A program made the position numbers and the translations under genes. From a virus (Duplodnaviria > Heunggongvirae > Uroviricota > Caudoviricetes), in the IMG/VR virus record IMGVR_UViG_2545824712_000011: a DNA stretch of 39,625 bases; one strand, given 5' to 3'. Below are positions 1 to 38,774 of this stretch, in pieces. Below the pieces are notes generated by a model, which was not told the origin of the DNA, searched no databases, and was given only the letters and a program-made list of their open reading frames with translations. Position 1 is the stretch's first letter. Each line of letters opens with the position of its first letter.

Positions 1-327
1 CTACTTTTTTGCACGCCCATATTCAACGGCTTCTTTAAGGAGTTCATTTTCCATCGTTTTTTTGCCGAGCAGGCGCTGGAGTTCTTTAATCTGCTTCATG
101 GCAGCAGCAAGTTCAGAGGCAGGAACGACCTGTTCTCCTGCGGCCACAGCAGTAAGACTTCCCTCCTGGTATTGCTTGCGCCAGAGAAATAACTGGCTGG
201 CTGCCACACCGTGTTGCCGGGCAACAAGGGAGACCGTCATTCCCGGTTCAAAACTCTGCTGAACAATAGCGATCTTTTCCTGTGTAGTACGCCGTCTGCG
301 TTTCTCCGGTCCTAAGACATCAATCAT
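1..327 (-). CDS. insC: IS2 transposase OrfA (InsC); 3' end coincides with window edge
   Basis: Translation [56 protein letters not shown]... matches IS2 InsC as recalled; A6G slippery run sits just before the apparent TAG at the window edge. Confidence 0.85.
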
Positions 328-418
328 CTGCTCTCCAATGACTAGTCTAAAAACTAGTATTAAGACTATCACTTATTTAAGTGATATTGGTTGTCTGGAG
401 ATTCAGGGGGCCAGTCTA
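1..418 (-). mobile_element. IS2 (IS3 family) terminal segment; element continues beyond window start
   Basis: 381-418 is the reverse complement of the IS2 end TAGACTGGCCCCCTGAATCTCCAGACAACCAATATCAC; followed by IS2 orfA reading toward the window start. Confidence 0.9.
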
Positions 419-2217
419 GATGCCTGATGTAATGCTGAAAGTTTAGTGCCATTAGAGCCTGTCTGATAACCAATACCTGTATGTTCACCATAGAATCTTG
501 AATGATATTTACTCCCTCTAACGTAGTCATCAGCGATAGAACTACCGCTTGTTTGCTTTATGAATTTGAACCCATCACAAATATCAAACCCACGGCATTG
601 ATACTGGCTTAACTCGTCAGATGTATTCTTAAGAAGGGTAATCCCTTTGTGTGCCCGAACATATCCAGATGATATCCTAACTTGTGTTGGTCCATTCTGT
701 TCATTAGTTGGCAATGATATGAAGTGCGTCACACCTACCGCATTGTCTTCCTTAAGATCGCATGAGATATTTGACAACTCCATTAGCGAAGTAGCATCCT
801 GCTGAACTATATCTGTAAAATCTAAGCAATGATCTCCTGTGACACCCTCAATACCTAGACCATCAATACTTAAAGATCTAAATTGATAGAACTTATGTGG
901 TAATTTACATCCATCCGACGCGATATTTGTGGCCTTAACATACATCAATGGGTAAGGACTGTTCACCGGATCATATGTTGTTCTATCAATAGCCGCGCCC
1001 CACAGATATCCGTAGTCACAATGCCTTGCCCAGTTGGAAGAGAATGTAGTAGATGTGCCAGCCAAACCGAAACCATAGATACAATCATATGCTTGGTTGT
1101 TTGTAACATTACTGACAAAGCATGATAAGGGAAGTGCAAATTTATAATGTAGAAATATGTTATTTTTAATATCATATTCACTACCACCGCCAAAAGTTTG
1201 TGTTTGACCAGAAATGACCAATGGGCTACCTGAATATTCATCGTCAGCGTTGCGAAAACACATATTCTTTACTTTAAGATTGTGCCCCCAACTTCCCATA
1301 ACAAAACCACCACTTCCTGATGTATAAACAATACTTTTTTGTGGATTAATCCCATATAGATTTAGACTAATCCCTTCCCATCTAAACTGGCTAATGTCAA
1401 TTTGAGTGTTACCAATATATATAGGCTGGTCTATGAAAACAGGAAGCTTAGTTAGATAAGCTTTATTAAGTGCTAATCCATCATTTGTTACACCTGTTAA
1501 ATCAACGCCACCCATGCTTGGCGCTCTAGGATACCCTGTGGCCTGAATAGTACTCCAGTCAATATATGGAGCATCCATCCACGCTCCAAACATACGTGGT
1601 GTTACGTACCCCTTACCTTGAAGATCACGTTTCCAGCGTTTACCACCCGCAGTGACAATGACCATGCCGTTATCATCTGCAGAAGTAGAATCTGTGAAAT
1701 CGGCCACAAACAGACCACCACCAGTATCACCTGATACTGTCGGCTTCATGCCTGTAGTGTGGAAGTCGACGAAAATCTTTTGCTGATCTCGCTCAGGCTC
1801 AATTGTCCTTAACATTGCTATATCAGGGCATGTCCCGATGTATTTAAGACCGTCTTCCCCTGATAGAGATACTTTAAGCTGATCAGGATCATATTTAAGA
1901 ACATTCGGAAAATAGAACTGCTGTGCACCATATGCATCATAAACAGCCATAGAATGGCCTTGCACAGTTACGAACTTGGCAATCTGTCCGTTATATACAG
2001 GGTAACCAGCAGCGTTAATGATTATTGGTTGCGAAACAGGAACATGAGAACCGTCTTCATTCTCTACATAAACCTGAATCCGGTTTTCAGGATTTACCGG
2101 GTCAGTGTCAATTTTCCCGATATAAATTTCGCCATTGGCTACGGCTTTAAAAGAACGCGCCATAGTGAAAAGTTGCGAAGGCATCGATACGATCACATTG
2201 GCTGTAATGTCTGTCAT
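403..2217 (-). CDS. Tailspike protein: P22/Sf6/HK620-type N-terminal head-binding domain plus divergent receptor-binding domain; 3' end replaced by IS2
   Basis: N-terminus [59 protein letters not shown]... matches tailspike head-binding domains; last four to five codons and the stop are IS2-derived (IS2 end at 418). Confidence 0.85.
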
Positions 2218-2271
2218 TTAATTTGCTCCAGATACAAGGAATCGCCGCAGCATGGCTACGGTGAATTTTGG

Positions 2272-2300
2272 GCATAAAAAAACCCAGCCGAAGCTGGGTT
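2272..2300 (-). terminator. Intrinsic terminator between ant and tailspike gene
   Basis: Minus strand reads ACCCAGC-TTCG-GCTGGGT followed by TTTTTTTAT. Confidence 0.6.
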
Positions 2301-2317
2301 GTCGCGTTGGTTATCTG

Positions 2318-3253
2318 TCAGTAGTTATGTACTGAAGGAGGTAATTCTTTATTCTTAAGTCTCATCCATGCGGAAAGATTCGTTGGTCCGTCTGGCTCAT
2401 TGATATCAACATCGCGTGTGTGATTGATTAAAACGTCTCTCGCCATTCCGATAACATACGAGAATTCATGACCGTAGTCGTAGCATCTGCCGGAATAGTT
2501 CGATTGAATTTGTTTTAATGCCGGATACAGTTCGCGGAATAATGCCTGTGAGCGGTTAGCATAATCCCATAACCATACAAGGCTGTTTGCTTCTTTTGCA
2601 GAAAGCTCGTTGGTTTTCTTCTCTTGTTTGCCAATGAACTCACCTTCAAGTGGAACTCGAGCTGCAAGTGATAGTGCTTCGGTAAACTGCTCCTCACTGA
2701 TTTCTTTGTACGAACATCCAAAATGGGATTTCAGTGACGACCACATGGTGATCATCGCCTTAGCCTGTTTTTCTTTTGGCAGAGACTGACCGCGACTCAT
2801 GACGAGTTGTTTAATGGCTTCCTGCTGTTCAGTGGTGATTTTACCCGGCAACGCCTTTTTAGCTTTGCGTGGGTTAACTACATGACCTTTAGTCCAGTAG
2901 TCATGCAGCACGCTAAAGCATTCTTCCTGGTACTGAATCAGTTTATCACGGATGTCAGCACGAACTTTCTCAGGGTTGATGCTGAACAGCCATCCATTTA
3001 ACTTCTTCAGCGGGATGCATAAAAGCTTACGTAACTTGCCATCAGCAGCAACCATAGAGATATCTCTACAGTTGAATTTGTCCTTCATTTTACGCAACTT
3101 AACAGATTGACCAGTCCAGTCGATACCAATGTTTTCCACAATTTGACGCATCGCTACATAAGTCACTCCGGCAGCCACAGCGGTTAAAATCTGCTGACCA
3201 TTGAAAGGCACGTAAGAGGTGTTCACTGCTTCTAAAATTGCTATACTATTCAT
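2318..3253 (-). CDS. ant: Antirepressor Ant
   Basis: Starts [21 protein letters not shown]... at ATG 3253 with GGAG upstream; position downstream of arc as in P22 immI. Confidence 0.8.
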
Positions 3254-3321
3254 GTTGGTTTTTCTCCACGAATTTACCGACAACCGAAGCCCTGACTGTT
3301 CCCGCAGTTGGGGCTTCAACT

Positions 3322-3483
3322 TTACGCGCCAATGCGCCCTTCCTTCTTAAAGCTGTCCATTACTCTCTGATAAATCTCAGAGTTAACAGACCGACCATTC
3401 TCTTCCGCCACCTTGCGTACCAAATCCAATACTTCTTTAGGCCACCGCAAATTGAACTGCGGCATTTTTCTTGCGCCTTGCAT
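3322..3483 (-). CDS. arc: Arc repressor (ribbon-helix-helix)
   Basis: 53 aa [53 protein letters not shown], near-identical to P22 Arc as recalled. Confidence 0.9.
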
Positions 3484-3576
3484 ATTCCACTCCATTCCAT
3501 TAAATGATAGCACCGTACTACTATTGAAAGCGTACTACTACCGTTCTAGCATGTCAACAAATAACAGGAGAGCGAC
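3484..3576. promoter_or_regulatory. immI divergent promoter/operator region (Pant / Pmnt)
   Basis: Intergenic between divergent arc and mnt; contains direct repeat GTACTACTA x2 (CCGTACTACTATTGAAAGCGTACTACTACCG). Confidence 0.55.
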
Positions 3577-3816
3577 GTGGCTAGAAACGATCCACAATTT
3601 AACGTAAGAATGCCAAGTGAAATCAAGCAGCAGCTTACTCACATTGCGGCAACAAACAGGCGCTCTATCAATGCTGAAATCATAGCTGCAATACAGCTAT
3701 GGATTAAGATTAACAGAGAAAAGGTCATACCATCGACATCTCAAGATCTCACAAAAACAGAGAAGGAAGCAATGGATATTGCAATTAGCGTACTTAAGAA
3801 GATTCGAGGCCAATAA
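3577..3816 (+). CDS. mnt: Mnt-like ribbon-helix-helix repressor
   Basis: MARNDPQFNVRMPSEIKQQL... resembles P22 Mnt N-terminus; GTG start with AGGAG 7 nt upstream; divergent from arc. Confidence 0.75.
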   Translation: MARNDPQFNVRMPSEIKQQLTHIAATNRRSINAEIIAAIQLWIKINREKVIPSTSQDLTKTEKEAMDIAISVLKKIRGQ

Positions 3817-4163
3817 TGAGCAGTAAGGAGCAATACTTAAAAGTTACTTTTGAGTCTTTTAGTAATTACTTGACTTCATTCAAAAAAACTTATGTATGCC
3901 CAATATGCAGCAATACAAACTGGACTCTTTTAGCACCTGAGCATCTTAAAAAAGATGATGGTGTTGAAGTTATAGGCCCATCCATACCAGGTAAAAGCTT
4001 GCCTAATAATCCTGTTAATCAAGATACTTATAGCAACGATAGTCTTAACATGGTAGCCATGCAATGCACCACTTGCGGTTTCTTCCACTTTTTTAGTTTA
4101 AACAAAGTTAGTGAAAATATCTCTTCTGGAAAATTCGTAAAGGGTGATGGAGATAATGTTTGA
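3816..4163 (+). CDS. Hypothetical zinc-ribbon protein (CxxC...CxxC), first gene of AT-rich cassette
   Basis: ATG overlaps mnt stop (TAATG); CPIC at residues 28-31 and CTTC at 84-87; about 30-35% G+C by rough count. Confidence 0.6.
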   Translation: MSSKEQYLKVTFESFSNYLTSFKKTYVCPICSNTNWTLLAPEHLKKDDGVEVIGPSIPGKSLPNNPVNQDTYSNDSLNMVAMQCTTCGFFHFFSLNKVSENISSGKFVKGDGDNV

Positions 4164-4656
4164 CCAACATGTTCACAATAAATCACCTAGTATTTATGGA
4201 GATGCTCAAAGCCAACATGAAAACCTTGACTTTGACAAATCGTTATGGAGTTCAATAGAAAACGCTAAATATTCAGAGTATTACAGACCAACTGACAGAA
4301 ATCCGTCAAAGGAACCACAAATATTTAGCCTACAAGAAGAGCAACACAAAGAAGAAGGTCGTGATACCGTGAAACGTTTAGAGCTATACGGGGTTGCAGT
4401 TGCTATCATTGGTTCTATCGTTGCCGCCACATGGACGATTCGAGGCACTATAGATGATAAAGTTGAATCATCACGACAAGAGCTAACAGGAAACATCCAA
4501 ACCAGTAAGGCAGAGATAATGGCTACTATCCAAAACAACCAATCAGTATTACAGTCAAGGATTGATAACACTGATCAAAAATTAGACTCAACAAACCAAT
4601 CTCTTTATAAGGTATTGGCTATATTAGAGTCTCAAAAAGACAAACGTTCTCAATAG
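4144..4656 (+). CDS. Hypothetical single-pass membrane protein with C-terminal coiled-coil-like domain
   Basis: Start overlaps upstream gene (alternative ATG at 4156 overlapping its TGA); hydrophobic segment LELYGVAVAIIGSIVAATWTI; polar heptad-like C-terminal region. Confidence 0.6.
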   Translation: MMEIMFDQHVHNKSPSIYGDAQSQHENLDFDKSLWSSIENAKYSEYYRPTDRNPSKEPQIFSLQEEQHKEEGRDTVKRLELYGVAVAIIGSIVAATWTIRGTIDDKVESSRQELTGNIQTSKAEIMATIQNNQSVLQSRIDNTDQKLDSTNQSLYKVLAILESQKDKRSQ

Positions 4657-4677
4657 TTTCTTGATTTATTACCTATA

Positions 4678-4712
4678 GCTGCATGATTGATGTCTGTTGA
4701 AAATCATGCAGC
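4678..4712. repeat. Perfect 11-bp inverted repeat GCTGCATGATT-N13-AATCATGCAGC
   Basis: Read directly; lies between second and third cassette genes, no T-tract after it. Confidence 0.8.
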
Positions 4713-4736
4713 ATTGATAAATCTAAGGAGATCGGC

Positions 4737-5057
4737 ATGTACATATCGCTCTCTACCATTTTTTTCATCTGCTTAGCTATTTGGCTTTTAAGAATATGGC
4801 AGGATTGCTCTGTCAGCCATGCTGCTGCGGTGAGAAATAAAAACGCCCTCATAAAAGAAGCTGAAAACGTTGTCTTATCAATGGATCACCTTTCATGGAC
4901 CGAGATGACTACAGGGCAACAAGAGGTTTATGAGTGTGCGATTGAGCGGTTAAGGCTGCTTAAATCGTACAAAAAGAACCACGCTCCCGACTCATTCCCA
5001 TTCCTGAAAGAATGGCCGAGATGGTATGACCCGAAAAAAGCAACCATCAACCGCTAA
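4737..5057 (+). CDS. Hypothetical small membrane-anchored protein
   Basis: AAGGAG 8 nt upstream of ATG; N-terminal hydrophobic segment MYISLSTIFFICLAIWLLRIW; stop 8 bp from convergent gp16 stop. Confidence 0.55.
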   Translation: MYISLSTIFFICLAIWLLRIWQDCSVSHAAAVRNKNALIKEAENVVLSMDHLSWTEMTTGQQEVYECAIERLRLLKSYKKNHAPDSFPFLKEWPRWYDPKKATINR

Positions 5058-5065
5058 CCAACTTT

Positions 5066-7069
5066 TTACTGCTGGGCTTGCTCACTTGAAGCCTGAATTA
5101 GAGGTGTAAGAGTTTCAGATACCCGTCTGATCGCTCTATCATAAGCAGTACTTCCTTTTGGCGTGTTTGCTAACTTTAGTAATGCGTTCCTCATCGCGCG
5201 TGACTCATAGCCCCTGCCAGCCATACCGATACCAGCTCCAACTGCCGCAACTTTTGCAAACATTGGATTTGTAACAGACGCAAGAGCTGTTATCAGCGCT
5301 GCTGGACCAGCTACCATTTGCCCTGTTAGTGGGCTTGCGGCAGCAGTAGCTGCCTGTCTAGTGGAATCAAGATATTTCATTATCCCATCAAGCTGTTTCC
5401 CATGCTCTCCTCTGAAGAACGTCTCAGCCTGCTTCCGATTCCTTTTCATTTCATTAATAAACTTCTCAACGCTAAGCTTTCCTGAATCGCTTGTCGCCTT
5501 ATCCATTGCACGCTGAACAAGTGCTGCTCTAGCATTTTGACGCCCACTATCATCAAGCAATCGATAAAGTTGCGCCCTTTCCGCTGGGCTTTGGCTGAAT
5601 ACTAGTTTAGTGACATCTTCTGGCGTTGTTTTACCACTCTGAATAGCTTTTTGGACACGTGTATTGCTCATCATGTCGTTGAACTTTGCCCAAGAACGAT
5701 CAACACGCGACATGTTTTGCGCTTCCTTCGCACCTAGTTTTGCGCCAACCGCTTTTTTCATGTCTGTTGTGTATGCGTTATAAACAGACTGCGCAGCTTT
5801 CTCCAGCGTATCTCTATCGACCTCGTCAGGTGCTGCCATAAAGCGCTTACGTAAGTTTGTACGGTTTTCTCTAGCTAATTGCAGGTTATTTGGACCGCTG
5901 GTGATGTCATTTCTAAACTGTTGAAGGACAGAAACAGCTGAGCGGTCTTGCGATACTCCTGGGCGAGTTAACTTGGAAATCTGCTCATCAATTGCTTTCA
6001 CTGTTCCAGTGATGTCAACAGGAGTATCCCCCATCAAACTGATGATCCTGTCGTACCGCTTGCCAGCAGCCTGAATAAATTGCTGCTGACCACGAGTAGC
6101 TGATTGGTAAAGTTGTGCGTCAGATATTCCACCAACATTATCGCTAAATGTTCTAACTAAATCTTCCCTGGCCTTTTGCTGTGCATTTCTTATCCCACCT
6201 GTTCCGGCTATTGGGATTCGCTCAGCCATAGCTCGTGCTTGCTTACCAATATTTGTTCCCGGTTCCACAAGATCTGTTGTCATCAGTGGCAAGTTGTTCT
6301 GCTTGGCAAAGTCAATCTGAGCTTGTTTTTCAGGAGCAATCTTACCCATAGCAGAACGAGACACTGCGCTTGCGGTGTTTTCTACACCCTTTAGTACCCC
6401 ACCAAGACCAGCAGAAATTGCAGTTTGAACTGGATTAACATTCTCACCGCCAGCGATCTTAGTGGCACCCTGTAAAGCTAAATCAGTAGCGCCTGATTTT
6501 AGTGTTGCACCTACAACAGACGCAGCTCTACCTGCTGGAGTGAATGCAAGAGCATTTGCCAAGAATGACGTTATATCCTGCGGTGACAAACCAGGCTTGT
6601 TAAGTGCATATTCCCCTGAAGGAAGGGTGACTATGGAATTTCCCTTCTCATCCTTCCGGATTTTCCCGCCAATACTTTGCAGTATTTTCTCCTGTGAAGC
6701 GTCGGAACCAAATAGCTGCCCCAATCCAGCACGCAGCGCATCAGTGCTTAAGCTATTAAGCTCTGGAGCAGACCCAACATTTTGCAGTCTCTCCATTTCT
6801 GGTGTCATTCGGCTTTCACCGGTAACGGCATCGCGCATTGCAGCACCTAAAACAGCCCCTTGCTCAGCAGAGCGATCTAGTCCTTCCTTCTGCTGAGTGG
6901 CAAGCTGTGCATATCCTGATGCAAGTGAGTTGTCTGCTGGCGATTGCTGAACACCTTGTTGTGTTGGTGCTGACTGACCAGCAAAATACTCATCAATGGC
7001 GGTGCCAATATCTTCGGTGCTCGTACCATCAGGAAAGGTAAATGTCTTACCGTTTGCAGTTACTTTCAT
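5066..7069 (-). CDS. Ejection (DNA transfer) protein, P22 gp16-like
   Basis: [29 protein letters not shown]... and gene order gp7-gp20-gp16 as in P22; ATG overlaps gp20 stop. Confidence 0.75.
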   Translation of the reverse strand: MKVTANGKTFTFPDGTSTEDIGTAIDEYFAGQSAPTQQGVQQSPADNSLASGYAQLATQQKEGLDRSAEQGAVLGAAMRDAVTGESRMTPEMERLQNVGSAPELNSLSTDALRAGLGQLFGSDASQEKILQSIGGKIRKDEKGNSIVTLPSGEYALNKPGLSPQDITSFLANALAFTPAGRAASVVGATLKSGATDLALQGATKIAGGENVNPVQTAISAGLGGVLKGVENTASAVSRSAMGKIAPEKQAQIDFAKQNNLPLMTTDLVEPGTNIGKQARAMAERIPIAGTGGIRNAQQKAREDLVRTFSDNVGGISDAQLYQSATRGQQQFIQAAGKRYDRIISLMGDTPVDITGTVKAIDEQISKLTRPGVSQDRSAVSVLQQFRNDITSGPNNLQLARENRTNLRKRFMAAPDEVDRDTLEKAAQSVYNAYTTDMKKAVGAKLGAKEAQNMSRVDRSWAKFNDMMSNTRVQKAIQSGKTTPEDVTKLVFSQSPAERAQLYRLLDDSGRQNARAALVQRAMDKATSDSGKLSVEKFINEMKRNRKQAETFFRGEHGKQLDGIMKYLDSTRQAATAAASPLTGQMVAGPAALITALASVTNPMFAKVAAVGAGIGMAGRGYESRAMRNALLKLANTPKGSTAYDRAIRRVSETLTPLIQASSEQAQQ

Positions 7070-8484
7070 CATTCCACCGTAAATTGAATGCCTGATTTTG
7101 AGGTATATGATCCAACCTGACTCCGTGGTTCTCCTGAAGGTGTCGAATCTTGTGCTGGCGCTGCGTCAGTATTCATTGACATATACCGCTTAACGGCACT
7201 CCCCAATGATTCACCTTTTTTAACATCCAACCCCAATATCTGACCGCCATTACGCGATTGTCCAGGGTTGCCATTCGCGCTCATCCACTCGGCTTTAAAC
7301 TCATTAAACTGCGCGTTTCGTCGCTCAAGGTTTGCCATTGCATCAAGCCATCTTGCGACCGTCTCAGGGTTATCCATGTCAGTTGGCGCCCCCTGTCTAA
7401 CGATCTCAACGTCTTTATCCGTTGCTGGGCCGGGAGGTAGGAATTTAAGAACCTGACTGTTAACAAGGGCATTTTGGCGAATGCGCAAATCACGCAATGT
7501 CGTATCGCTTCCGGTAAGTTTTGCGAACATGTTCTGTGCGTTACCGAACAAACCTGTCGTTGGTTTTTCTGCTCTGAACTGTTGAGCAAGCGCACTCATG
7601 GAATTGGCTGAGTTTGATGATGCTGTGGCATTGTTTACAGCCGTCTCGATTCCTTTTTCCATGTTTACTGACAGCTTAGGTGCTTCGCTAATCAACTGCT
7701 GAGCCTTTTCCTGCGCTTGCTGCATCTTAAACCCGAACTCTTGCTGATCCAGAGCCAAGCGTTGTGCTGCGATATTGTGCCCAGTCATTGCTGACTGATA
7801 GGAAAGGTTTTGCCCTCTCGCCTGAAGTGCTTCACCAGCCTGATTGCTGCGGATTGTCTCTGCCAGCCTGCCTCGGTCAATTTCACGACCAGCCATCTTA
7901 TCCTGAACAGCAAACGCCTTTTCTGGTCCAAGCGCACCGAGAGACATAGTAGTCAGCATGTGTGATAGCTGCTCTGGATTCTGGATACCTGTCTGAATCA
8001 TCCAGTCAGCATTAGCACCAACGCGATTTAACCTGTCCTTGTTGTCAGTAATGAATTTACTGTAGGCTTCCGGCCCCTGAGAAAGAGCGACGTTAGCCCT
8101 CATGGCTAAATCGCCCATATCGTTGCGTTGCTGATCATTAAGACCGGAAAACGCCTGTTGTGCCTGTGCAACAAACGCTGGATTTTCCTGGGCAAACTTA
8201 AATAGTCCCGATGGATCACCAGAAGCCCATGCATCAGCGTGAACCTTATTGAACGCACTAATAGCTTTCTGTTGCTGTTCCTGATTGTAAATATCAGCAA
8301 CTCCAGCCAGACCACGTAACGCGGTCAGGCCAACGTTATTTGCACCTGAGCGAGCCAGTTCATTGTTTTCGCGGATCAGACCAAGCGTTGCGTTAATGTC
8401 GCTTGCCTTTGGCGCATTCTCATTTTGCGTACCGATGCCAGCCAGAAAACCACCAGAATTAATACCCTGTTGCCACGTAGCCAT
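7069..8484 (-). CDS. Ejection protein, P22 gp20-like
   Basis: 471 aa, same length and position as P22 gp20. Confidence 0.75.
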
Positions 8485-8494
8485 TGATTACCCC

Positions 8495-9187
8495 TTAAAA
8501 CAACGAGCCAAGCAGACCAAGACCGCCGCCGATCGCAGCCCCCCACGGAGTTGATGAACCAATTAATTTCGCAAGTCCGGCCCCAGCAATAGCACCAGAC
8601 GCACCTCCGCCAATAGCAGATTGCATTGCTGATGGTCTGTTGGCATTTGCCGCTGCAAGAGCCGCACTTTGCTGCGAAATCTGACTCATGTTGTTGGCAT
8701 ATGTTTGCCCGGCGTTTGCCTGTCCCTGAAGAGCGCCAAGACCGATATTTGCCAGGTTGTTGTAATTGTTCATTTGTCCAGATAGCCATTGCTGACCAAG
8801 CGTTGGTGCGATTGTTGCTAACTGATTACTGGTTGCGGTGGAACCCAATCCACCTGTTGCTTCCGCTGCCGCCAGACTCTGATAGCGAGCCTGACCTGCA
8901 AGGTCTTTATACTGCTGAGAGTTGTAATACTGGTTAAGTGCCTGACCTTGCCCCTCCAGAGACGATAAGTTTTCGAGGCTGCCGACATACTTCTCAGCCA
9001 GAGGAGTAAACGGCTTCAGGTTATTCATGATGGTGTTGAACTGCTGATTTTGCAGGTCTGCGGCATACTTCTGAGCTTCTGCTGCATACTTTGCGCTTTT
9101 ATCAGAACTGCCACCTTTCCCGCCTTTTTCAGGGCAATAAGGTTCCTCGCCACGCAGTTTTCTGCCCATCTTAAATGCATATAACAT
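8495..9187 (-). CDS. Ejection protein, P22 gp7-like
   Basis: 230 aa, Gln/Ala/Gly-rich, position between gp14 and gp20. Confidence 0.7.
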   Translation of the reverse strand: MLYAFKMGRKLRGEEPYCPEKGGKGGSSDKSAKYAAEAQKYAADLQNQQFNTIMNNLKPFTPLAEKYVGSLENLSSLEGQGQALNQYYNSQQYKDLAGQARYQSLAAAEATGGLGSTATSNQLATIAPTLGQQWLSGQMNNYNNLANIGLGALQGQANAGQTYANNMSQISQQSAALAAANANRPSAMQSAIGGGASGAIAGAGLAKLIGSSTPWGAAIGGGLGLLGSLF

Positions 9188-9189
9188 GG

Positions 9190-9645
9190 CTATCTCCCGT
9201 GATTCAGGAAGTCGATTAGTTCTTCGCGTGTTGCGCTGTAAAAAGTCACATCATCCACGCCTTTGAAGTATTTCTTGATGGTTCCTACACGCTTAAGGCC
9301 AATCATTGCGCAGTAAATCTGCCCGTGGCGGAATTTGCGTGCGGCGAACGATGTGACGCACTGAACGGTGGTGTTAGTCAGAATGTATCGCCAGAACGCC
9401 AGCCCGATTTCCTTGCTGAAGCCGCGAATCTCTGGCAGGTACATGGCGTGGCAATCGAATGTCAGCGGCTGAATCTCCTGATAGTAAACAATGCCGCCGA
9501 ACTGCCCGTGCACGTTCACCTCAAAGTAACGGCATTCAGGCTTGTAGTCGTATCCATCACCGTTGTTGCTTCCGGCAATAATGTCAGGGTGATTTCCGAC
9601 TGCTTCGATCAGGTCGATGTTTCGCGTTGGTTTGAACTGAATCAT
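9190..9645 (-). CDS. P22 gp14-like virion protein
   Basis: 151 aa; synteny between tail needle and gp7. Confidence 0.6.
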   Translation of the reverse strand: MIQFKPTRNIDLIEAVGNHPDIIAGSNNGDGYDYKPECRYFEVNVHGQFGGIVYYQEIQPLTFDCHAMYLPEIRGFSKEIGLAFWRYILTNTTVQCVTSFAARKFRHGQIYCAMIGLKRVGTIKKYFKGVDDVTFYSATREELIDFLNHGR

Positions 9646-10493
9646 TACTGCTCCGCGATTATCTTGATGGTTGTGGCAGTAAACGCCGCCCCATTTGACT
9701 GAATGGTTAACGTACTGCCATTTGTGGCAAGAAAGCCGTCTTTATCCACGCTGAAGAACGTAGCTAACAGGATGTTGTCGGTTGTTGTCTCCGCATTACG
9801 ACTGCTGACCAGTGTGTCAGGAACAGAGCCGGAAAAGGTTAGCTGCATTGACCTGTTTGCGGTTCCGCTGGGCCACGTCCCGACGATCGACAGCTTGAAG
9901 AACAAGGTTTTGTTCTCGTTGAACACAACCATCTTGTTGTTAACGGTGTCGAAGAATGGTGCCAACGTGCCGGATGACGGCGTGAGCGTTTTCAGCAGGC
10001 TAACAAGGTTGGTCGGCGCTGTCGGAATGGTTACTGATACGCCAGAGTAAACAACCTCTGACTTCTTGCGAGTAGTGGCATACTCCAGAGCATCGATGCG
10101 CGTTTCATGGTCTGAAACCTGCGATTCCAGCGACTGAACTCTGGTATCAAGCGACGCAATATCGCTTTCATTCTGAGTGATTCGCGTTTCATGTTCCTGA
10201 AGAGTTGATTCTGCCTGGCTGATTCGCTCCTCATGATTAACAAGCGTTGCTTCCGCAGCAGAAATTCGTTGCTCATGGTCAGAGAGAATCACATCCTGCT
10301 CATCGTTCCTGACTTGTGCATCATAAGCGCCCTGCCCTGCTTCGTTGGCCTTGTTCGCCACGTTACCAACATCAGTACCCTGTGCGATAACGTACAGCAG
10401 ATATGACTGCGAGAAGATATTGCGTGGAAGGACTGATGTGTCGAGTCGTGTAGCCTGAATGATTACCGGCTCATTGAGATTCGAATCAGCCAT
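9645..10493 (-). CDS. Tail needle protein (P22 gp26-like) with Sf6-type C-terminal knob
   Basis: [43 protein letters not shown]... matches gp26 N-terminus; heptad repeats; C-terminal domain longer than P22 (282 aa); ATG overlaps gp10 stop. Confidence 0.85.
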
Positions 10494-11911
10494 TACTCGA
10501 TCCTTATCTGGCAGCCTGACAGAGTGACAGGTGACTTCGTGATAACGCGCAATTTGAAGCCGACATTTTTCCTGATGCGCCCGACACGCTTCCACAAAAC
10601 ACGTTTGTCGTAAATGAACGGTTCATTCTGTTCAATCATCTGCTCACGCCCGTAATTTATGCCGTCAGTGGTTGCAGAGAGGAACAGGCGGTCGGCGTAC
10701 TGAGCTACGCCAGTGGATGATTCCACCTCCAGATCGAAGCATCTGGCGTTATCCGCTTTGAACAGTGGAGTAAACAGCAGGTGTTCCTGTTGCTTGTCGT
10801 ACTGGCTGCTGATGTCGAATTGCAATTTCCCGGTCACGGACTCCAGTTTATCGCCGCACGTTATCTGATTGCCTTCGTAAATGAAGTCGATAGCGCGGTA
10901 CACATCGTCATACAGACCTGTTTTCAGCACACACCATTGCGGACCATTGGCGCTTGAAGATGCGTCGTACACGAGAACATGGCGCGGAAGGTGGATAATC
11001 AGCAACTCATGAGCATCAAATCGCAGCGATTCCATCACACCATCAGCCAGTTCATCAGCAGTGTAGGAGCGGAGGATTTTCTCAATGCTCGCGCTGGCGA
11101 TTGGTGACACCTGACCGGAGCCGATGATGTATACAGACGGCGCACCCGTTGCCGGATTGCTGATGAACGCATACGAATCAGCAAACGGCGTTTTGCAGTA
11201 AGTCCCGGCGATGCCTTTTTGCACCATCAGTGATGGCTGTGCGACATACAAAGCAGCACCAACGGTGGTTGCGCCAGTCAGGGAGAAATATTCAATAGTC
11301 GATGAACCAAAGCAGACGATGAAGTCTCGCCATGTCCCGATACCGATGATGCCGTCCGGCTGAGACTCGGCACGATATTGTGCGCTGTAACGGTCAGGAT
11401 GCGATTCGTCTTCAAGGTCAGTGATAAACCATGAATCAGTGCCGTCTTTTGACCACGCATAACGCCCACGTAAACGAGTAATGTCGCGAACCGAACCTAA
11501 CTCATACTGAGTGAATCCGCTGTCTGTAGGCCAGTTTGAGACTGTTTTAACCGTGCCATCATAGCGATACTCTACCAGTTGACCATTAACGCCTACAGCC
11601 TGAGATGTCCGACCATGCGCCATTGATACACGACCACTTCCGGCAACATCACCGACTTCGCTTTCGCCCTTATACAGCTTGCCCCCACACACGCGATATA
11701 CAGCACTCTGCGCCATGTTGTACTCGACGCCGCGCGATATACCGTTCACATCAGAACGTTTGGCAATGCCCGGGAATGAGCGAAGATATCCGCTGCTGTT
11801 AAGGATTTCTTTTGGTGTAGCCAGCATATTCACTGGCAGATAGTCGATATAGTCGGCGTTTCGAAAGTCTTTGCCGACACCTTTCATAAGCGGAAGTTGC
11901 TGAATCGGCAT
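10493..11911 (-). CDS. Tail accessory/hub protein, P22 gp10-like
   Basis: 472 aa, same size and position as P22 gp10. Confidence 0.75.
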
Positions 11912-11919
11912 TTATTCAC

Positions 11920-12402
11920 CTATGCGTTTGGGATATCGCCATCAATCATAGGGAGATCGCCTGGATAATATCGGTCAGATGTAAACACGTCATATTTATT
12001 ACCCTGTCCTACAGGAAAATCTCCACGTCGTCGCATTGAAGGAACAACCAGAGTGTCGGTCATCAAGGCATCATATGAGCGTTGGGCGTTACTGAGAACT
12101 TGCGGAGTTGGCTCAAGGCTGTAATCAGATAGCATTCTCAGCAATAACTGATAGCCTACTGCGTGTTTGTATTTTCTTGGAAGACCTGACTCATCATCTG
12201 GTAATGGCTGCTCATCTCCAGTTGCGAAAGCGTAACCAATGTCGCCGGGGTTAATCATCCACTCGGACATCATATCTTCCAGATCATTTACACCATCTTC
12301 AATTGATTGCGGCTCAACATCAGTCAGCGATGCATTAGAAGCAATAGCAAACTTACGAAGCGCAAAAAGGACGATCTCACCCTTTGTCAGTACTGTTGCC
12401 AT
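11920..12402 (-). CDS. Tail adaptor protein, P22 gp4-like
   Basis: 160 aa; synteny downstream of coat. Confidence 0.7.
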   Translation of the reverse strand: MATVLTKGEIVLFALRKFAIASNASLTDVEPQSIEDGVNDLEDMMSEWMINPGDIGYAFATGDEQPLPDDESGLPRKYKHAVGYQLLLRMLSDYSLEPTPQVLSNAQRSYDALMTDTLVVPSMRRRGDFPVGQGNKYDVFTSDRYYPGDLPMIDGDIPNA

Positions 12403-12562
12403 TGTCTGCCGCCTTACGACCTCGCTTACTGGTCGGTTTCAATTCATCAACTGAGGCAACAAAGCCCAACTTTTCGAAAAACTGGAAGTCTTTTTCTGCG
12501 ATAACGGCCTGTACATGTCCGGATTCGTTATCTGCGGCAAGGAATACACTCATGCGATCCAT
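12377..12562 (-). CDS. Small hypothetical protein between coat and gp4
   Basis: 61-aa ORF in the late operon, overlapping gp4 start by 26 bp; Sf6-like genomes carry a small ORF here as I recall. Confidence 0.4.
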   Translation of the reverse strand: MDRMSVFLAADNESGHVQAVIAEKDFQFFEKLGFVASVDELKPTSKRGRKAADNGNSTDKG

Positions 12563-12572
12563 ATTGTTTCCT

Positions 12573-12600
12573 TAAAACATAAAAGGGGCGGAAGCCCCTT
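12573..12600 (-). terminator. Intrinsic terminator immediately downstream of coat gene
   Basis: Minus strand AAGGGGC-TTCC-GCCCCTT followed by TTATGTTTT. Confidence 0.65.
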
Positions 12601-12604
12601 GTTA

Positions 12605-13876
12605 TTACGGATTACCGAAGAACTGACCGCCCATGTGAGGGTTAAAGCACACATATGCAGGCAGTAAGTCAAAGCGCATTTTTTGCACGTTGGCATCGCC
12701 ATCTGCGTATTTATGTACGCGGATGGAGAAACCTTCATATGTTGCAACAGCAGAATCAATACTGTGCAGTTTCGGCAGTGGGATAGAGCCAAGTCCACAG
12801 AAGAACTTGTTATAGAACAGGTTTGGCTTCATTGTCTGGCTAGCAGTGCCTACTACAGATACGGCATCGCCTGCCGCTACCTGACGACTTACAGAGTTGT
12901 ACTGCGGGTTTGTAGTGTCATAAATCGGAACACCAGAAAGCGTAACCGTCACATCGCCACTGCTGTCTGAATTAGCATCAGCAGTAACCGTTGCAGTGAA
13001 GCTAATTGGTGTGGCTCCGTTATACAACGCCTGTTTGGTCTGCTGTTGCAGCCAGTAGGTATTGGTGAATTTAACCTGATCACCAGCTTTCAGAAAACCT
13101 GTAACGCTGGCTGTCGCTCCGGTCAATGTTACAGTGAACTGGTATGAGTCTTTAACTGCGTTATAGGTAACAGTTGGCTGTGTTTTGACTGTCAGTGTTC
13201 CGCCAAATGCCCCCTGCGTACGAGAGGCAAGCCCATTAGACATCAGTGCGCGAATGCCGCCAAAATTGGTTGGGATCTGTGCATTCTCCCATGCAGTACG
13301 AACCAATTGATCTGAAGCGTGCAAACCAGTCTGCGCATCAGCAAGTCGCTGTGCAGACCATGGATCCATTACAGCATAGTTTTCACCTTCATTAACGCCG
13401 AGGTCTTTCAGGAAAGATGCCGTCTGCGCAACATCAGACCATTTGGTGATTGGAGTATTGGGGCTACCAAGTGACAACGCACCGTTATTCATCATGAAGT
13501 GAGCAAGCTCTGTTTCAAGGTCGGTAACGATTCGCTGGCGAACCGGCGCGAGAATTTCTTCCAGCTGGTTAAGCTTGATCGCTTCCTCCAGTTGCTGATA
13601 TTCAACAGCAACAGTGATGTAGTTACCTACACGCCCCGTAGCTTTACCTGAGATCAGGTTGTTTTTATTTTGCCCTGAAATATCACCAGTGGGAGTACGG
13701 AGGGATGAGAATTGATGCGGACGTTTAAAGCTAACGCTATCGCCAGTGCTGGAGTTGATTTCACCTGCCAGCAACTGACGGTCTACGGTTTTCGCCAGAA
13801 CTAAATCTGACATAAAACCCGGAAGGAATTTTTTCAGAACGATTTGACTGACGTTACTGTCGAGATTGTTAGGCAT
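12605..13876 (-). CDS. Major coat protein (Sf6/CUS-3 type)
   Basis: 423 aa MPNNLDSNVSQIVLKKFLPGF...; follows scaffold gene; differs from P22 gp5 and matches the Sf6-type coat as recalled. Confidence 0.8.
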   Translation of the reverse strand: MPNNLDSNVSQIVLKKFLPGFMSDLVLAKTVDRQLLAGEINSSTGDSVSFKRPHQFSSLRTPTGDISGQNKNNLISGKATGRVGNYITVAVEYQQLEEAIKLNQLEEILAPVRQRIVTDLETELAHFMMNNGALSLGSPNTPITKWSDVAQTASFLKDLGVNEGENYAVMDPWSAQRLADAQTGLHASDQLVRTAWENAQIPTNFGGIRALMSNGLASRTQGAFGGTLTVKTQPTVTYNAVKDSYQFTVTLTGATASVTGFLKAGDQVKFTNTYWLQQQTKQALYNGATPISFTATVTADANSDSSGDVTVTLSGVPIYDTTNPQYNSVSRQVAAGDAVSVVGTASQTMKPNLFYNKFFCGLGSIPLPKLHSIDSAVATYEGFSIRVHKYADGDANVQKMRFDLLPAYVCFNPHMGGQFFGNP

Positions 13877-13887
13877 TTATCTTTTCC

Positions 13888-14772
13888 TTATTCGATTTTT
13901 GCGCCGGGGCATAATTTGTTGAATTCGTCTTGTTTCGCATCAGCACCGCCACCACGTACTTCCGGCTCTGGCTTGATGGCTTTCTTTGGTTTTGGAGCAA
14001 GGCTTACCTGTTTGCTAATCTGCCCCAAGAGGAATGCTGCGCGAATTGGATCTGTCTCAGCGGCTACACGCTGGCGTAATTGCTGGCTCTTACCTAAGCC
14101 ATAGGCGAGTAGTTCAGAGCCTTCGTCTGCACAGTGAATGATGATTTCCTGCTGAATTGGTGGTAGCTCACTAAGAACAATGGCTTCCATTTCCTGATAA
14201 TCTTTCACAGGAAGTTTGGCTGCCCGTTGTTTATGCGCTTCTACCCTTTGCTGGAAACGCTGCTGGTATTCCTGTTGCTGACGTAGTTTTTGTTGCTGCT
14301 GCTGTTCGACACGGCCTTTTTTCTCATGCCAATCAGTCAATGCCTGTTCAAACGCCTGTTCGTCATAATCACACGACTCAAGAGTCGGTTTTGGTGGAAT
14401 AGCGTCTGGTTGTGGTTGCTGATGTTCCGCTGGCTTGGCTAATGCTTCCTCAAGCTGGCGGCGCAACTCACGGTTTTCTTTCTGTGTTTCTTTGAAGCCT
14501 TTGCGAAGATCTTTCACCCATTGCGGTGCAGGTTGCCCGTCAATGTGATCATCATCGTCAGCGTTAAGCTGAATTTCTTCATCACCAATACGCAAGGCGT
14601 AATCTTCTGGTGTCTCTTCGGTTTTTTCAGGCTCAGTTGCCACCTCTTTACCGTTGTCATCCTGGCTTTCATTCTCAGGCTGTGACTCTGTTTGGATGAT
14701 GGTTTCTTCTGCATTTTCCTGTGCTTCAGACAGGTCAATAACCTGACCGTCGATGATCAGTTCGTTTTCCAT
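13888..14772 (-). CDS. Scaffolding protein
   Basis: 294 aa, highly acidic and Gln-rich helical composition, between portal and coat. Confidence 0.75.
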   Translation of the reverse strand: MENELIIDGQVIDLSEAQENAEETIIQTESQPENESQDDNGKEVATEPEKTEETPEDYALRIGDEEIQLNADDDDHIDGQPAPQWVKDLRKGFKETQKENRELRRQLEEALAKPAEHQQPQPDAIPPKPTLESCDYDEQAFEQALTDWHEKKGRVEQQQQQKLRQQQEYQQRFQQRVEAHKQRAAKLPVKDYQEMEAIVLSELPPIQQEIIIHCADEGSELLAYGLGKSQQLRQRVAAETDPIRAAFLLGQISKQVSLAPKPKKAIKPEPEVRGGGADAKQDEFNKLCPGAKIE

Positions 14773-14785
14773 TGATTACTCCTGG

Positions 14786-16912
14786 TTAACTCGGCATTAA
14801 GTCTGCCGGTGACTGTGGTGGTGACTGGAATTGCTGTTGTTGTGACTCGGCGACATCTTTCAGAAGGCGTATTGCCTCCATCACTGCTTTGTCATCGATG
14901 TTTCTGGCTTGAGCCAGTTTATAGACAGTGTTTGCCTGACTCTCCATCGCATCCTGCTGGGCAGTAAATGCTTTGATTTGAGTTTGAGCAGTTTCGTTAG
15001 TTGCTTTTTGCGCTTCTGCCTGCGCTGCTACCATTTGCGCCTGAGCGAGAACCATTTCAGGATTTGGCTGGCTTTGTGCTGCCATTTGCGCCTGTTGAAC
15101 AATCTGCTGCTCTTTCTCATTGCGTGGTTTTGCAATACCAGATATCAGCAGTTGGTTTCGGTTGTACTCTTTGAAGTCATCAAGGCCTTCGCCATCGATA
15201 TTGTCCAGAATAATACCCTGAATTGCCTGGCGCATTGGGTCTGTTGGAAGCATAGAGCTAAGGACATTTGTCAGTACAGAAACCGTTGCATCACGTCGTG
15301 CTGTGTAGCTTGGTCCAACATCAACCGTCACATCGTATCGACCGACAGAAAGGTCATTTAACGCAACAACAGCCCCTGTTTGCCTGTCAACAACCTGTGC
15401 GCTCAGGACAGCGATATCATCACTTCCATCTTCGTTAACGATGCGCACTTCACGTTCTGAACCGTACACTTCACGCGCCATTGACAGCCATACTTCACCA
15501 GCGCGTTTAAGACTTTTCGCCATATTGTCCAGATAGATAAACGAAGCCATATCTGCTCTGTTCATCAAGTTGTTAACCGTTTCCTGAGCAATATTACTTG
15601 GCATCTGCTGCATGGCCTGACTGCCGCCTGTAACCTCCTGAATATCAGCACTGGTTTGCTGTAGTAATGCAGCCAATGCCTGATTCATAACCGCAGGCTG
15701 TGTATATCCTGCCGGGGTAGCTCCAGCGATAATGTTGCCAGATTTATCTCTCACTTCGCGCAACGGCAAGAACGCTGGGCGTTTCTTGTTGCGAGCCTCC
15801 CAGTGCTTCTCAAGTCCACGAATTTGCTCCATGCCAACTATAGGGATCTGACCGGGGTCTTGCGCTGCAGTATCAGCCAGCATTGAAACCTGAAGGTTGT
15901 ACAAACGCTGTGGATCCATTGCTTTTGCAATGTGCCCTTCGACACGCTCAATGTCATCAATGAACCAGCGTTTTCCATAAACCGGGATGAGGGGGATATG
16001 CTCACCAGGAATACGTCGAGGTTTCTCAAGGAAACCATCACCATCCACTACGGATACATACACACGACGGCGCTTCACTGAGCGCCTTGCCACTTCCTGA
16101 AATCCAGCTATTGCCAGTTCATCTTCAATATCTTCAACCTGATCACTGTCGTATGTTGCAATCTCTCCAGTGATTGGATGTCGATAACTGATGACGTCAA
16201 CAGACTCTTTACGAACTTCGTAATACTTCGCTATGTAAATAACATCTGCACCAAACCAGTTATATTCCCAACTGGTCATAGACGTTACATCCAGAGAAGC
16301 AGGAGGTTTCTTTCCGTATTCAGCCTCATATTTTTCAGGTGACAACGAATACATACAGAACGCCCACAACGCGTCAGATTTGTCGTACTTCTTAGCGTCA
16401 GGGTCAAACCACACAGAGCGCGACGGGTCGTATATTGGTTCAATAGCAATACGCTGACGATCGTCCATGGGGTCGTATTCATTGACCAGCATCGACGTCA
16501 AACGGAAGCAACCGAAACCACCAGTAGCAGCGTCGTCAAATGCATTATCGCAAGCCTCACCGCCATCAGTTTCTTCGTAGTCAGCACGGAACAGACCATT
16601 TAATTTATTGGCTAACTCTTCGCTTGCCTCTCTGTCACCAGGACGAAACTTAACGGTGATTCTGTTATTGCGGTATTCTGCAATGATGCGGTTAAGTTCA
16701 GTTGCTACCTTATTGATTTCAAACTTAGGATACTTCTCGAACTGCTCATCAAGCTTAGTTCCAGCCGCCGTTGCTCCTTCCCATTGACCTCCGGGGACAC
16801 GAGCAAACCTCGTAGCTTCAATGCACTTTTCGCGCACTTCCTTCTGTGGAGAATAGGCGCGGTCAAACCTGAGCATGATCCGCTCATGTTTTTTCTCTAA
16901 TGTCTCTGCCAT
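14786..16912 (-). CDS. Portal protein
   Basis: Start MAETLEKKHERIM...; central region (YYEVRKESVDVISYRHPITGE..., GEHIPLIPVYG) resembles P22 gp1; directly downstream of terL. Confidence 0.85.
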   Translation of the reverse strand: MAETLEKKHERIMLRFDRAYSPQKEVREKCIEATRFARVPGGQWEGATAAGTKLDEQFEKYPKFEINKVATELNRIIAEYRNNRITVKFRPGDREASEELANKLNGLFRADYEETDGGEACDNAFDDAATGGFGCFRLTSMLVNEYDPMDDRQRIAIEPIYDPSRSVWFDPDAKKYDKSDALWAFCMYSLSPEKYEAEYGKKPPASLDVTSMTSWEYNWFGADVIYIAKYYEVRKESVDVISYRHPITGEIATYDSDQVEDIEDELAIAGFQEVARRSVKRRRVYVSVVDGDGFLEKPRRIPGEHIPLIPVYGKRWFIDDIERVEGHIAKAMDPQRLYNLQVSMLADTAAQDPGQIPIVGMEQIRGLEKHWEARNKKRPAFLPLREVRDKSGNIIAGATPAGYTQPAVMNQALAALLQQTSADIQEVTGGSQAMQQMPSNIAQETVNNLMNRADMASFIYLDNMAKSLKRAGEVWLSMAREVYGSEREVRIVNEDGSDDIAVLSAQVVDRQTGAVVALNDLSVGRYDVTVDVGPSYTARRDATVSVLTNVLSSMLPTDPMRQAIQGIILDNIDGEGLDDFKEYNRNQLLISGIAKPRNEKEQQIVQQAQMAAQSQPNPEMVLAQAQMVAAQAEAQKATNETAQTQIKAFTAQQDAMESQANTVYKLAQARNIDDKAVMEAIRLLKDVAESQQQQFQSPPQSPADLMPS

Positions 16913-16914
16913 GT

Positions 16915-18327
16915 TTACCAACCGGAGGATGAGGGGACGTATATTTCTGTTTCTTCGCGGACCAATGCCGGGCAATGCATACACATCATCAGCGCATCAG
17001 CCAGGTTAGGAGATGGAATACCGAGCTTCTGCTTCATTTCGACCTTAGTCATTAGCTCCAGCTTCCCGTTGTTATTGAATTTGCGCTGAATCTGCGTCAG
17101 TTCTGCAAACAGCTTCTCCAGCATCTTCTCGCCTATCGCTTCTTTGTCGAAACTCAGCATGTCGTCGGGGTCTGCATACTCACCGTGGACAACCGCCCGA
17201 TATGTCAGATACAGCCTGTCAGCCAGCGCGTAATAGAATTGCGCTCGCTTATTACGGAACACATCGCCAATAGTGCGAACGTTGTCGCCCTGCACGACTT
17301 CATCAGCCCATGCTCCGGCCTGATATGGTGCACCTTCATCGAATGGCGATTCGCTGCCCTTGAACATCGTGGCGGTGATTTTCTTGCCGGAGAACGCTTC
17401 TGTTGTCTGTCTGCGTAGCCCGGCACCAACACCATCACCATCCCACAGGTAATGGTCAGCGCCGTCTTCAATCGCCAGCGAAGTAGCCCAATCAGCGCCC
17501 TCGTTGATGTCCATCAGCAGACCTTCGGCAATACGCTTAACTACCGAACCGTGACGCGATGCGTAACCTTTAGCATCTGGCCCTGTATCTGATGGATCAT
17601 GCGCAGAGACAACAGCGCCTTTCGCTTTCCATCCGAGTTTCTTGTGCGCATCGGTTGCGGCTTCAAGCCATTCACGTTTGATGATTGCCATATCACTTGC
17701 GCTCACTGGCTCACCAAGCCAGATGTGACGATACAGTGTCGGATTTCTGCGTTTGCACTCTTCCATCTCCAGACGGAGAACTTCAGGAAAGTGCGGGTTG
17801 TCGGTGTAGTTCACCGTCAGCAGACAAATATCATCGGGAGGATTTACAACGAATCGCTGATAGGTATCGTCGAGGATGTTTTTCGGGTTGAAGCTCACCC
17901 ATATTTCGGAAAATGGCTTGCGGATGGTTGGTATCAGGATATCCCATGATTCCTTCGTTACCGCTTCCGCTTCTTCCACCCAGCAGATATCAATGCCTTC
18001 GAGCGATTTAATCTTCGTCGGGTTGTTTTTGATGCCGTAGAACATGAACTCAGCATTCGTTCCGAGATGACGAATCATGGAACGCTGAATTTCAAACTCA
18101 GCCGTATACCCTTCACGCTCTATGGTGTCTTCAAGCAGCCGGATTACCGAATCGCTGATACTGTTTTGCAGTTCACGAGCACAGAGAATACGCACTGGCT
18201 GCCGACGCGCCGCTTCAACAAGCAGTCTCGCAATTGCCCATGATTTACCGCTACCTCGACCGCCTTTGGCGACTTTGTAGCGATGCGCCTCAATGAACGG
18301 TTCAAAGATAGGATTAATCGAGGTCAT
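16915..18327 (-). CDS. terL: Terminase large subunit
   Basis: Walker A KGGRGSGKS; 470 aa as in Sf6 gp2. Confidence 0.9.
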   Translation of the reverse strand: MTSINPIFEPFIEAHRYKVAKGGRGSGKSWAIARLLVEAARRQPVRILCARELQNSISDSVIRLLEDTIEREGYTAEFEIQRSMIRHLGTNAEFMFYGIKNNPTKIKSLEGIDICWVEEAEAVTKESWDILIPTIRKPFSEIWVSFNPKNILDDTYQRFVVNPPDDICLLTVNYTDNPHFPEVLRLEMEECKRRNPTLYRHIWLGEPVSASDMAIIKREWLEAATDAHKKLGWKAKGAVVSAHDPSDTGPDAKGYASRHGSVVKRIAEGLLMDINEGADWATSLAIEDGADHYLWDGDGVGAGLRRQTTEAFSGKKITATMFKGSESPFDEGAPYQAGAWADEVVQGDNVRTIGDVFRNKRAQFYYALADRLYLTYRAVVHGEYADPDDMLSFDKEAIGEKMLEKLFAELTQIQRKFNNNGKLELMTKVEMKQKLGIPSPNLADALMMCMHCPALVREETEIYVPSSSGW

Positions 18328-18749
18328 TTTCCGAATAGAGTGCTCATCGGTGATGTTTCAATCTGGATTGCGCCGCCGTCTTTGCCGACAAGCTCGTTAG
18401 TTACCTTGTCGCCATACTTACGGGGATTCATTCGGGCCAGCGCCCATTTGCGGGTATCAACGCGAAGTCTTGCCTTTGCCACCTCAGCAGCATCTGGAAT
18501 CGCAGTGTCAGCAATTTCGAATATCTCTTCGAAAATAGAATCAGCTCGTGCCTCAGTTGCCTTCGCGTACTTGTCTCTAAATTCTTCATGCTCTGACAGC
18601 CAGCGAAATACAGTAGCCTTTGCTGGCATGCCTGGGCGCTTGCAAACCTTAACCAGACTTTCCCCGGAGGCAAGCAGCGCACAGATATCATCAGCCACCT
18701 CCGGCAGGTAATCCGAAGGGCGACCGACATTCTTTTTCTCAGTCGCCAT
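18324..18749 (-). CDS. terS: Terminase small subunit (Sf6 gp1-like)
   Basis: MATEKKNVGRPSDYLPEVADDICALLASGESLVKVCKRPGMP...; overlaps terL start. Confidence 0.85.
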   Translation of the reverse strand: MATEKKNVGRPSDYLPEVADDICALLASGESLVKVCKRPGMPAKATVFRWLSEHEEFRDKYAKATEARADSIFEEIFEIADTAIPDAAEVAKARLRVDTRKWALARMNPRKYGDKVTNELVGKDGGAIQIETSPMSTLFGK

Positions 18750-36179: not shown

Positions 36180-36303
36180 TCCCGCCGTACACTACCGTCT
36201 ACCATTGTCTATAAACCCCATGTAACCATATAAAAATAAAGAGATTTTATTCTCATGACGTCCATTGCCGTCTATTGAAATCAAGTAAATCTATGGGGCA
36301 TAA

Positions 36304-36343
36304 TTGGGGGCATTGCTGGTTCGATTGTAAATGTGCCCCCAAT
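36304..36343 (+). promoter_or_regulatory. Stem-loop (9-bp stem TTGGGGGCA/TGCCCCCAA) ending 1 nt before int ATG
   Basis: Read directly; 21-nt loop contains GGTTCGATT. Confidence 0.6.
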
Positions 36344-38726: not shown

Positions 38727-38774
38727 AGAACAGAAACAAACAGGATACAAACAATACGTTATTAGGTATTAAGA

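Follow-up and report, generated by a model that had tools for sequence, protein, structure and literature searches.

IS2, a 1331-bp element of the IS3 family, is classically known from polar insertion mutations in gal and lac. A complete copy carries, after its first transposase gene, a second gene with the DDE catalytic domain that is expressed via a programmed -1 frameshift, and its right terminal repeat ends in ...GGGGCAAATCCA. In phage P22, gene 9 (tailspike) nonsense mutants and C-terminal assembly mutants yield filled heads without spikes, which can be completed in vitro with purified tailspike; the spike attaches to the P22 tail as a trimer, and a monomer is not expected to mount on a tail of this type. 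The P22 tailspike's C-terminal domain is an independent oligomerisation domain that acts in chain registration and trimerisation, and the phi29 and K1F spikes aggregate when their C-termini are missing (PMC3357383). In KP32gp38, trimerisation requires the C-terminal lectin-like domain, and phages engineered to lack it are impaired (PMC13082707). The C-terminally trimmed KP34gp57 depolymerase is a monomer, yet remains stable and fully active (PMC10653864).

Here we analysed a 39,625-nt stretch of DNA of a tailed-phage record (IMG/VR IMGVR_UViG_2545824712_000011; hereafter, the window), which begins inside an IS2 element that cuts short a tailspike gene. Like the classical IS2 insertions in E. 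coli genes, this locus displays the terminal repeat, an inward-reading first transposase gene and an insertion that is precise to the base, and related insertions in neighbouring prophage genes are flanked by canonical 5-bp duplications. It differs in that only 418 bp of the element are visible in the window and in that the reciprocal junction, as read from a protein record, implies 4 rather than 5 bp. The interrupted gene shares with P22 gene 9 the head-binding family PF09008 and the position after ant, whereas the beta-helix and C-terminal domain of P22 gp9 have no sequence similarity to the tailspike of the window. In the explanation that we favour as a whole, with a probability of roughly 85%, IS2 transposed by simple insertion into a tailspike gene of 745 codons, at codon 600; the gene belongs to an Sf6/P22-like prophage carried by the E. 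coli P0299483 lineage, and the event left a chain that is unlikely to trimerise.

The tailspike reading frame ends inside IS2

The shortened tailspike ORF occupies positions 403–2217 of the minus strand and comprises 604 codons and a stop, of which the first 600 codons are native. Its product is identical to RefSeq WP_001514659.1, and the same-protein records name E. coli P0299483.1. In gene sense, the 3' end reads ...CAG GCA TC|T AGA CTG GCC CCC TGA, where the bar marks the IS2 junction. The element thus supplies the segment 403–418 (minus strand), that is, the third base of Ser600, the four codons AGA CTG GCC CCC (R-L-A-P) and the TGA stop; codon 600 still encodes serine because its third base, now the first T of IS2, is a synonymous change. 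The first-pass annotation had described a tailspike frame that enters IS2 and takes its last codons and stop from it, and both the letters and the list of open reading frames confirm this. When the window was compared by megablast with complete E. coli genomes, similarity to the intact allele of strain 573 started at position 419 (98.5% match), and the base-level alignment with that allele breaks exactly between 418 and 419.

The other side of the break, positions 1–418, is the left 418 bp of IS2 (IS3 family), clipped by the start of the window and lying on the minus strand, so oriented that its transposase and the tailspike gene are co-directional. Direct reading of the plus strand from 389 to 418 (GGTTGTCTGGAGATTCAGGGGGCCAGTCTA) gives, once reverse-complemented, the left terminal repeat of IS2 (TAGACTGGCCCCCTGAATCTCCAGACAACC); this repeat has the IS2-type start TAGACTGGCCCCC, and its outer 30 bases (window 389–418) match exactly. 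The left terminal inverted repeat (IRL) as a whole presumably spans 377–418 (minus strand), an extent of 42 bp that we take from published IS2 descriptions, with 418 as its outermost base. The first-pass coordinate for the end of the repeat, 418, is therefore exact, given the direct reading and the alignment break. The identical 20-mer bounds complete IS2 copies of 1331 bp in five further E. coli genomes. Across the whole 418 bp, the window differs from two complete 1331-bp copies at 3 bases and from a second IS2 variant at 21, and 4910 of 5426 complete E. coli genomes contain loci that match it and are annotated as 'IS3-like element IS2 family transposase'. The comparison copies, 1331 bp long, are annotated with a 'programmed frameshift'. 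Within the element, the first transposase gene (orfA / InsC) starts with an ATG at 327–325 and runs off the window, which holds its 5' part (1–327, minus strand), and Pfam calls HTH_Tnp_1 at the equivalent position of the identical gene in L003.

The junction is real and not an accident of assembly. It recurs in two draft assemblies at NCBI and in two Logan assemblies built independently from separate runs (positions 1–12217 of the window are identical to one of the contigs that carry it), and the similarity breaks off at the very last base of IS2. Every contig of this lineage stops inside IS2, as is typical of short-read assemblies at repeats, and a contig misjoined at a repeated IS could be suspected precisely where such assemblies are least reliable. 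Nevertheless, the Logan contigs pass the junction unbranched and reach about 30 nt into IS2, which argues for a fixed insertion, and taken with the recurrence of the same junction in separate assemblies this leaves a misjoin with hardly any weight. Neither IS2 junction occurs in any of the 5426 complete E. coli genomes searched.

The truncated protein lacks a C-terminal domain

How much of the protein is missing could be measured against intact relatives. The tailspike of strain 573, the only complete E. coli genome with this tailspike 3' end, is 745 aa long and identical to the window protein at 594 of 600 residues; in this allele the native gene continues beyond window position 419 as AAATGCAG.... 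Compared with the 600 native residues of the window protein, 145 of 745 residues (19%) have therefore been lost, which puts a figure on the first-pass claim of a missing native C-terminus of unknown length. A database search with residues 120–600 returned a second 745-aa protein (P0005) that is 100% identical to the window protein over this interval, and a further 12 relatives of 739–839 aa, some of which have unrelated N-terminal adaptors. In all 13 aligned intact relatives (739–839 aa), the junction is followed by about 145 more residues, the last of which form a conserved YYD[KR]RW motif, and the missing C-terminal part contains 17 invariant columns across 25 sequences. Since every one of the 13 continues past residue 600, the possibility that intact relatives simply end here is excluded: the comparison that the first-pass annotation had proposed as the way to overturn its claim found no intact relative ending at the junction residue.

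The N-terminal head-binding domain (residues 1–113; window 1879–2217, minus strand) is intact and matches the full Pfam profile PF09008 Head_binding with E = 1.5e-65; the sequence matches of this region in the PDB include the N-domains of Sf6 gp14 and P22 gp9. Pfam identified nothing in the tailspike beyond Head_binding. On the basis of a structural model and Foldseek, the central right-handed parallel beta-helix, the receptor-binding or depolymerase part of the molecule (approximately residues 124–572; window 502–1848, minus strand), is also intact. This region was assessed on the AlphaFold model of an intact homologue, whose corresponding residues are 100% identical in the window protein. 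The model has a mean pLDDT of 68.6, with a poorly modelled N-terminus and a confident beta-rich core at approximately residues 124–560, and Foldseek with the intact model retrieved the solved tailspikes and depolymerases CBA120 TSP2, AM24, Sf6 and WceF, with E-values down to 3e-14.

Beyond the core, residues 572–603 of the intact model form a linker with pLDDT below 50, followed at approximately 604–745 by a separate domain with pLDDT of about 75–85. Modelled alone, this C-terminal domain folds into a beta-sandwich with a mean pLDDT of 82.9, which points to a discrete Ig-like beta-sandwich, in contrast to the interdigitated triple beta-helix and caudal fin that form the C-terminus in P22. The window ORF is without this domain, whereas residues 601–745 are present in every intact relative. 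The IS2 cut falls in the low-confidence linker, and the whole C-terminal domain is therefore lost while the head-binding domain and beta-helix are kept. A search of the PDB by sequence matched no solved structure to the missing domain, and no peptidase-type self-cleaving chaperone domain was detected in Pfam, PDB-sequence or fold searches.

A protein record matches the expected reciprocal IS2 junction

Whether the remaining 3' piece of the gene has been removed or merely separated depends on what lies at the other end of the element, which is outside the window. A 159-aa E. coli protein present on 3 contigs (WP_149007375.1; P0046) begins with MITGVWKYRGKS, continues with T and S, and then runs from native N601 (NAVYQQ...) to the native stop. 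Its first 12 residues correspond to a GTG-initiated reading of the IS2 right end, as in the comparison copy of L008 (gtg ata aca ggt gtc tgg aaa tat agg ggc aaa tcc a). The native part of the protein begins at the same codon at which the window ORF leaves the gene, and the 604-aa protein is likewise encoded on 3 contigs. In strain 573, an acyltransferase gene lies immediately beyond the 3' end of the tailspike gene. Members of this acyltransferase family, END68406.1 and END79613.1, have accessions numerically close to those of the strain's tailspike, END68118.1 and END82304.1, with the closest within about 300 of the strain's tailspike record.

From this protein record and from the proximity of the accessions, we infer a simple interruption, with the 3' piece of the tailspike gene probably still present beyond IS2. 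The first-pass annotation had stated that IS2 replaces the 3' end; the gene end is indeed missing from the ORF, but 'replaces' is probably too strong, since the fusion protein and the acyltransferase accessions favour interruption. Under a simple insertion, the sequence expected after the IS2 right end is CATCAAATGCAG..., followed by the acyltransferase gene and intS. Beyond the other end of the element, such an event would probably have left the final 439 bp at the 3' end of the gene, together with the genes for the O-antigen acyltransferase and for the integrase.

The alternative is an IS2-associated deletion or rearrangement, by which the tailspike 3' end, the acyltransferase, the integrase and the left attachment site would have been lost or moved; IS2 would then truly replace the end of the gene, and the prophage would also be locked in place. 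In line with such an event, nothing to the left of IS2 is visible in the window or in any contig of the lineage, the junction is absent from complete E. coli genomes, and IS-bounded tailspike remnants do occur in relatives such as L013 and L015 (IS1 adjoining a 349-aa remnant). Against it stand the 159-aa protein, which is exactly what fusion across the right end of IS2 should give, which resumes the gene at the same codon and which is found on as many contigs as the 604-aa protein, and the acyltransferase accessions so close to the tailspike record of the strain; we consider a deletion or rearrangement unlikely. Two further look-ups were uninformative on this point: the exact sequence of a 130-aa C-terminal fragment (P0001) matched no contig, and with a representative acyltransferase (P0047) the only contig reached was an unrelated one from Logan, in which the tailspike gene (660 aa) breaks off at the edge of the contig and no IS2 is visible.

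The proposed simple insertion has one irregular detail. The target copy expected to adjoin the left repeat is the 5 bp at 419–423 (GATGC on the plus strand, GCATC in gene sense), and its partner would lie outside the window. A canonical 5-bp duplication (GCATC) would, however, put the 159-aa fusion in another frame; the observed protein requires that IS2 ...TCCA be followed by CATCAAAT, a 4-bp overlap (CATC) deduced from the protein reading frame. With 4 bp in place of the usual 5 bp, the reciprocal junction would be non-canonical in some way, and the frame of the fusion would reflect either a non-canonical duplication or the later loss of 1 bp.

The shortened chain is unlikely to form a functional tailspike

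The interrupted gene now encodes the head-binding domain, the beta-helix, the linker and four residues contributed by IS2, without the C-terminal beta-sandwich (approximately residues 604–745). By analogy with the spikes introduced above, a chain that lacks its C-terminal domain is unlikely to form the stable trimer needed by P22-like tails, and we think it likely that functional (trimeric) tailspikes have been lost. Once induced, the prophage would then release DNA-filled, spikeless particles that fail to adsorb. The prophage could still be kept, with its immunity and conversion genes working as before.

A less severe outcome would be that the beta-sandwich is dispensable for folding and that the 604-aa protein still serves as a usable tailspike or as a free O-antigen depolymerase, in which case the prophage would be at least partly infectious. 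The position of the cut, in an inter-domain linker that leaves the head-binding domain and beta-helix whole, is compatible with this idea, and trimmed KP34gp57, monomeric but stable and fully active, offers a precedent (PMC10653864), so residual enzyme activity of the 604-aa protein is conceivable. Against it, the domain and its invariant residues are kept in 13 of 13 intact relatives, even where the N-terminal adaptors are unrelated, the spikes of P22, K1F and phi29 and KP32gp38 need their C-terminal part to assemble into trimers, and a monomer would not suit the trimeric attachment known from the structure of the P22 tail. On balance, we regard a still usable tailspike as quite improbable and favour the loss of functional spikes.

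What we describe is an ordinary IS2 insertional truncation of a prophage structural gene, an instance of IS-mediated prophage decay. It adds nothing new on the biology of IS2 or of tailspikes, and its main use lies in annotation and strain biology. The 604-aa WP_001514659.1 should be treated as the product of a truncated pseudogene and not as a tailspike variant, and WP_149007375.1, recorded as a 159-aa 'hypothetical protein', as what would be its missing half, joined to IS2 sequence. For predictions of host range or depolymerase that start from this allele, the 745-aa form should be used, and the prophage should be scored as probably defective for infectious particles despite late genes that look complete.

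Tailspike genes of related prophages are broken repeatedly

Insertions of IS2 into this neighbourhood are not confined to the window. Five more independent events were found around the tailspike and antirepressor genes of P22-like prophages in E. coli (strains 702/18, VTB97022v, 2014-01-7375, MFDS1019527 and VE-T10; IS2 copies at L008 4086–5416, L017 3086–4416, L018 3086–4416, L007 5771–7101 and L009 5780–7110), three in the tailspike ORF, one in ant and one in a terminator. In the three genomes in which the tailspike is split, its 3' piece lies just beyond IS2. The sites in the tailspike are within or just past the head-binding domain (residues ~127–140) and near residue 294, while the terminator copy sits in the hairpin between ant and the tailspike gene. 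Four of the five copies are flanked by 5-bp target duplications (GTGAG, CCAGC, ATGTC and CGAAA), and that of strain 702/18 by an unusual 14-bp duplication (ATCCATCTTCCGAA). These prophages thus share with the window the element and the gene neighbourhood, but they represent independent events at other targets, and the tailspikes involved have different receptor-binding domains; an insertion at the linker that precedes the C-terminal domain was seen in the window only. Each of the six IS2 copies near tailspikes points in the same direction as the gene, an apparent orientation bias that we rejected as an ascertainment artefact because the genome search joined pieces only when they lay on the same strand as the query.

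Such recurrence might mean that IS2 hits are favoured here, either because the AT-rich, horizontally shuffled region is a preferred target or because hosts gain by disabling virion adsorption while keeping immunity, superinfection exclusion and O-antigen conversion. We hold this proposal to be doubtful; if it is true, the event in the window, with a domain removed at the linker and an IS2-initiated ORF for the rest, would be one step in a repeated route of domestication.

Damage of other kinds was also noted. In L011, L012 and L014 (4061–6294) and in L016 (2478–4738), a related tailspike (~70–80% identical C-terminally) is split by a frameshift into 644 aa and 97 aa. The 97-aa ORF is encoded on at least 24 contigs, these cases included, and in one Logan contig the split is into 598 aa and 121 aa; the frameshift splits look like independent pseudogenisations of the same tailspike family. 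Separately, in other E. coli genomes a 5'-truncated remnant of the related tailspike (349 aa plus the 97-aa ORF) adjoins the acyltransferase gene and intS near yfdC (L013 4191–6294; L015 166–1514). In L013 its immediate neighbour is IS1, and early genes of lambda-like type lie on the other side; it looks like an IS1-bounded prophage remnant or a mosaic.

The remainder of the prophage appears sound

The tailspike gene lies at the end of the late operon, in the gene order gp16, three ORFs of unknown function, Mnt-like, Arc, Ant and tailspike. The viable phage N7 matches window positions 2300–18412 in one collinear piece at 98.5%, and Pfam assigned gene calls of the late region to tail, needle and ejection proteins of the P22 type. 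Apart from the tailspike, the late region therefore looks sound, and the IS2 insertion is the only visible lesion. This sets the prophage apart from KplE1, a heavily deleted remnant, as its late module is wholly collinear with that of N7. In the relatives examined, prophages of the KplE1 / CPS-53 type and of the Sf6 type are integrated at argW, and intS and an O-antigen modification gene adjoin the tailspike end; in the window prophage, the excisionase gene torI is located at the opposite end from the tailspike. No tRNA gene was detected within the window. A paper on Shigella oac1b was set aside as irrelevant, since it concerns a different type of prophage.

Three other regions of the window deserve mention. 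The three consecutive ORFs that separate the gene of the Mnt-like repressor from that of the ejection protein gp16 (3816–5057, plus strand; 115, 170 and 106 aa) have no Pfam match, and relatives carry SieA-type exclusion genes in that position. An 826-aa ORF for a DnaB-type replicative helicase (24382–26862, minus strand) carries the N-terminal domain of DnaB at one end and the C-terminal domain at the other, and in the middle of the protein (residues 439–485) lies a LAGLIDADG-like match; the insert looks like an intein with a homing endonuclease. Finally, a second, P4-type integrase (36275–37630, plus strand) follows the torI-like excisionase, as annotated in the matching genome L010, and the region 36275–39625 (plus strand) carries genes of another small integrative element, for which the matching genomes annotate a rolling-circle replication protein. 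On the strength of the second integrase and these further genes, a second element apparently lies in tandem at the right end of the prophage.
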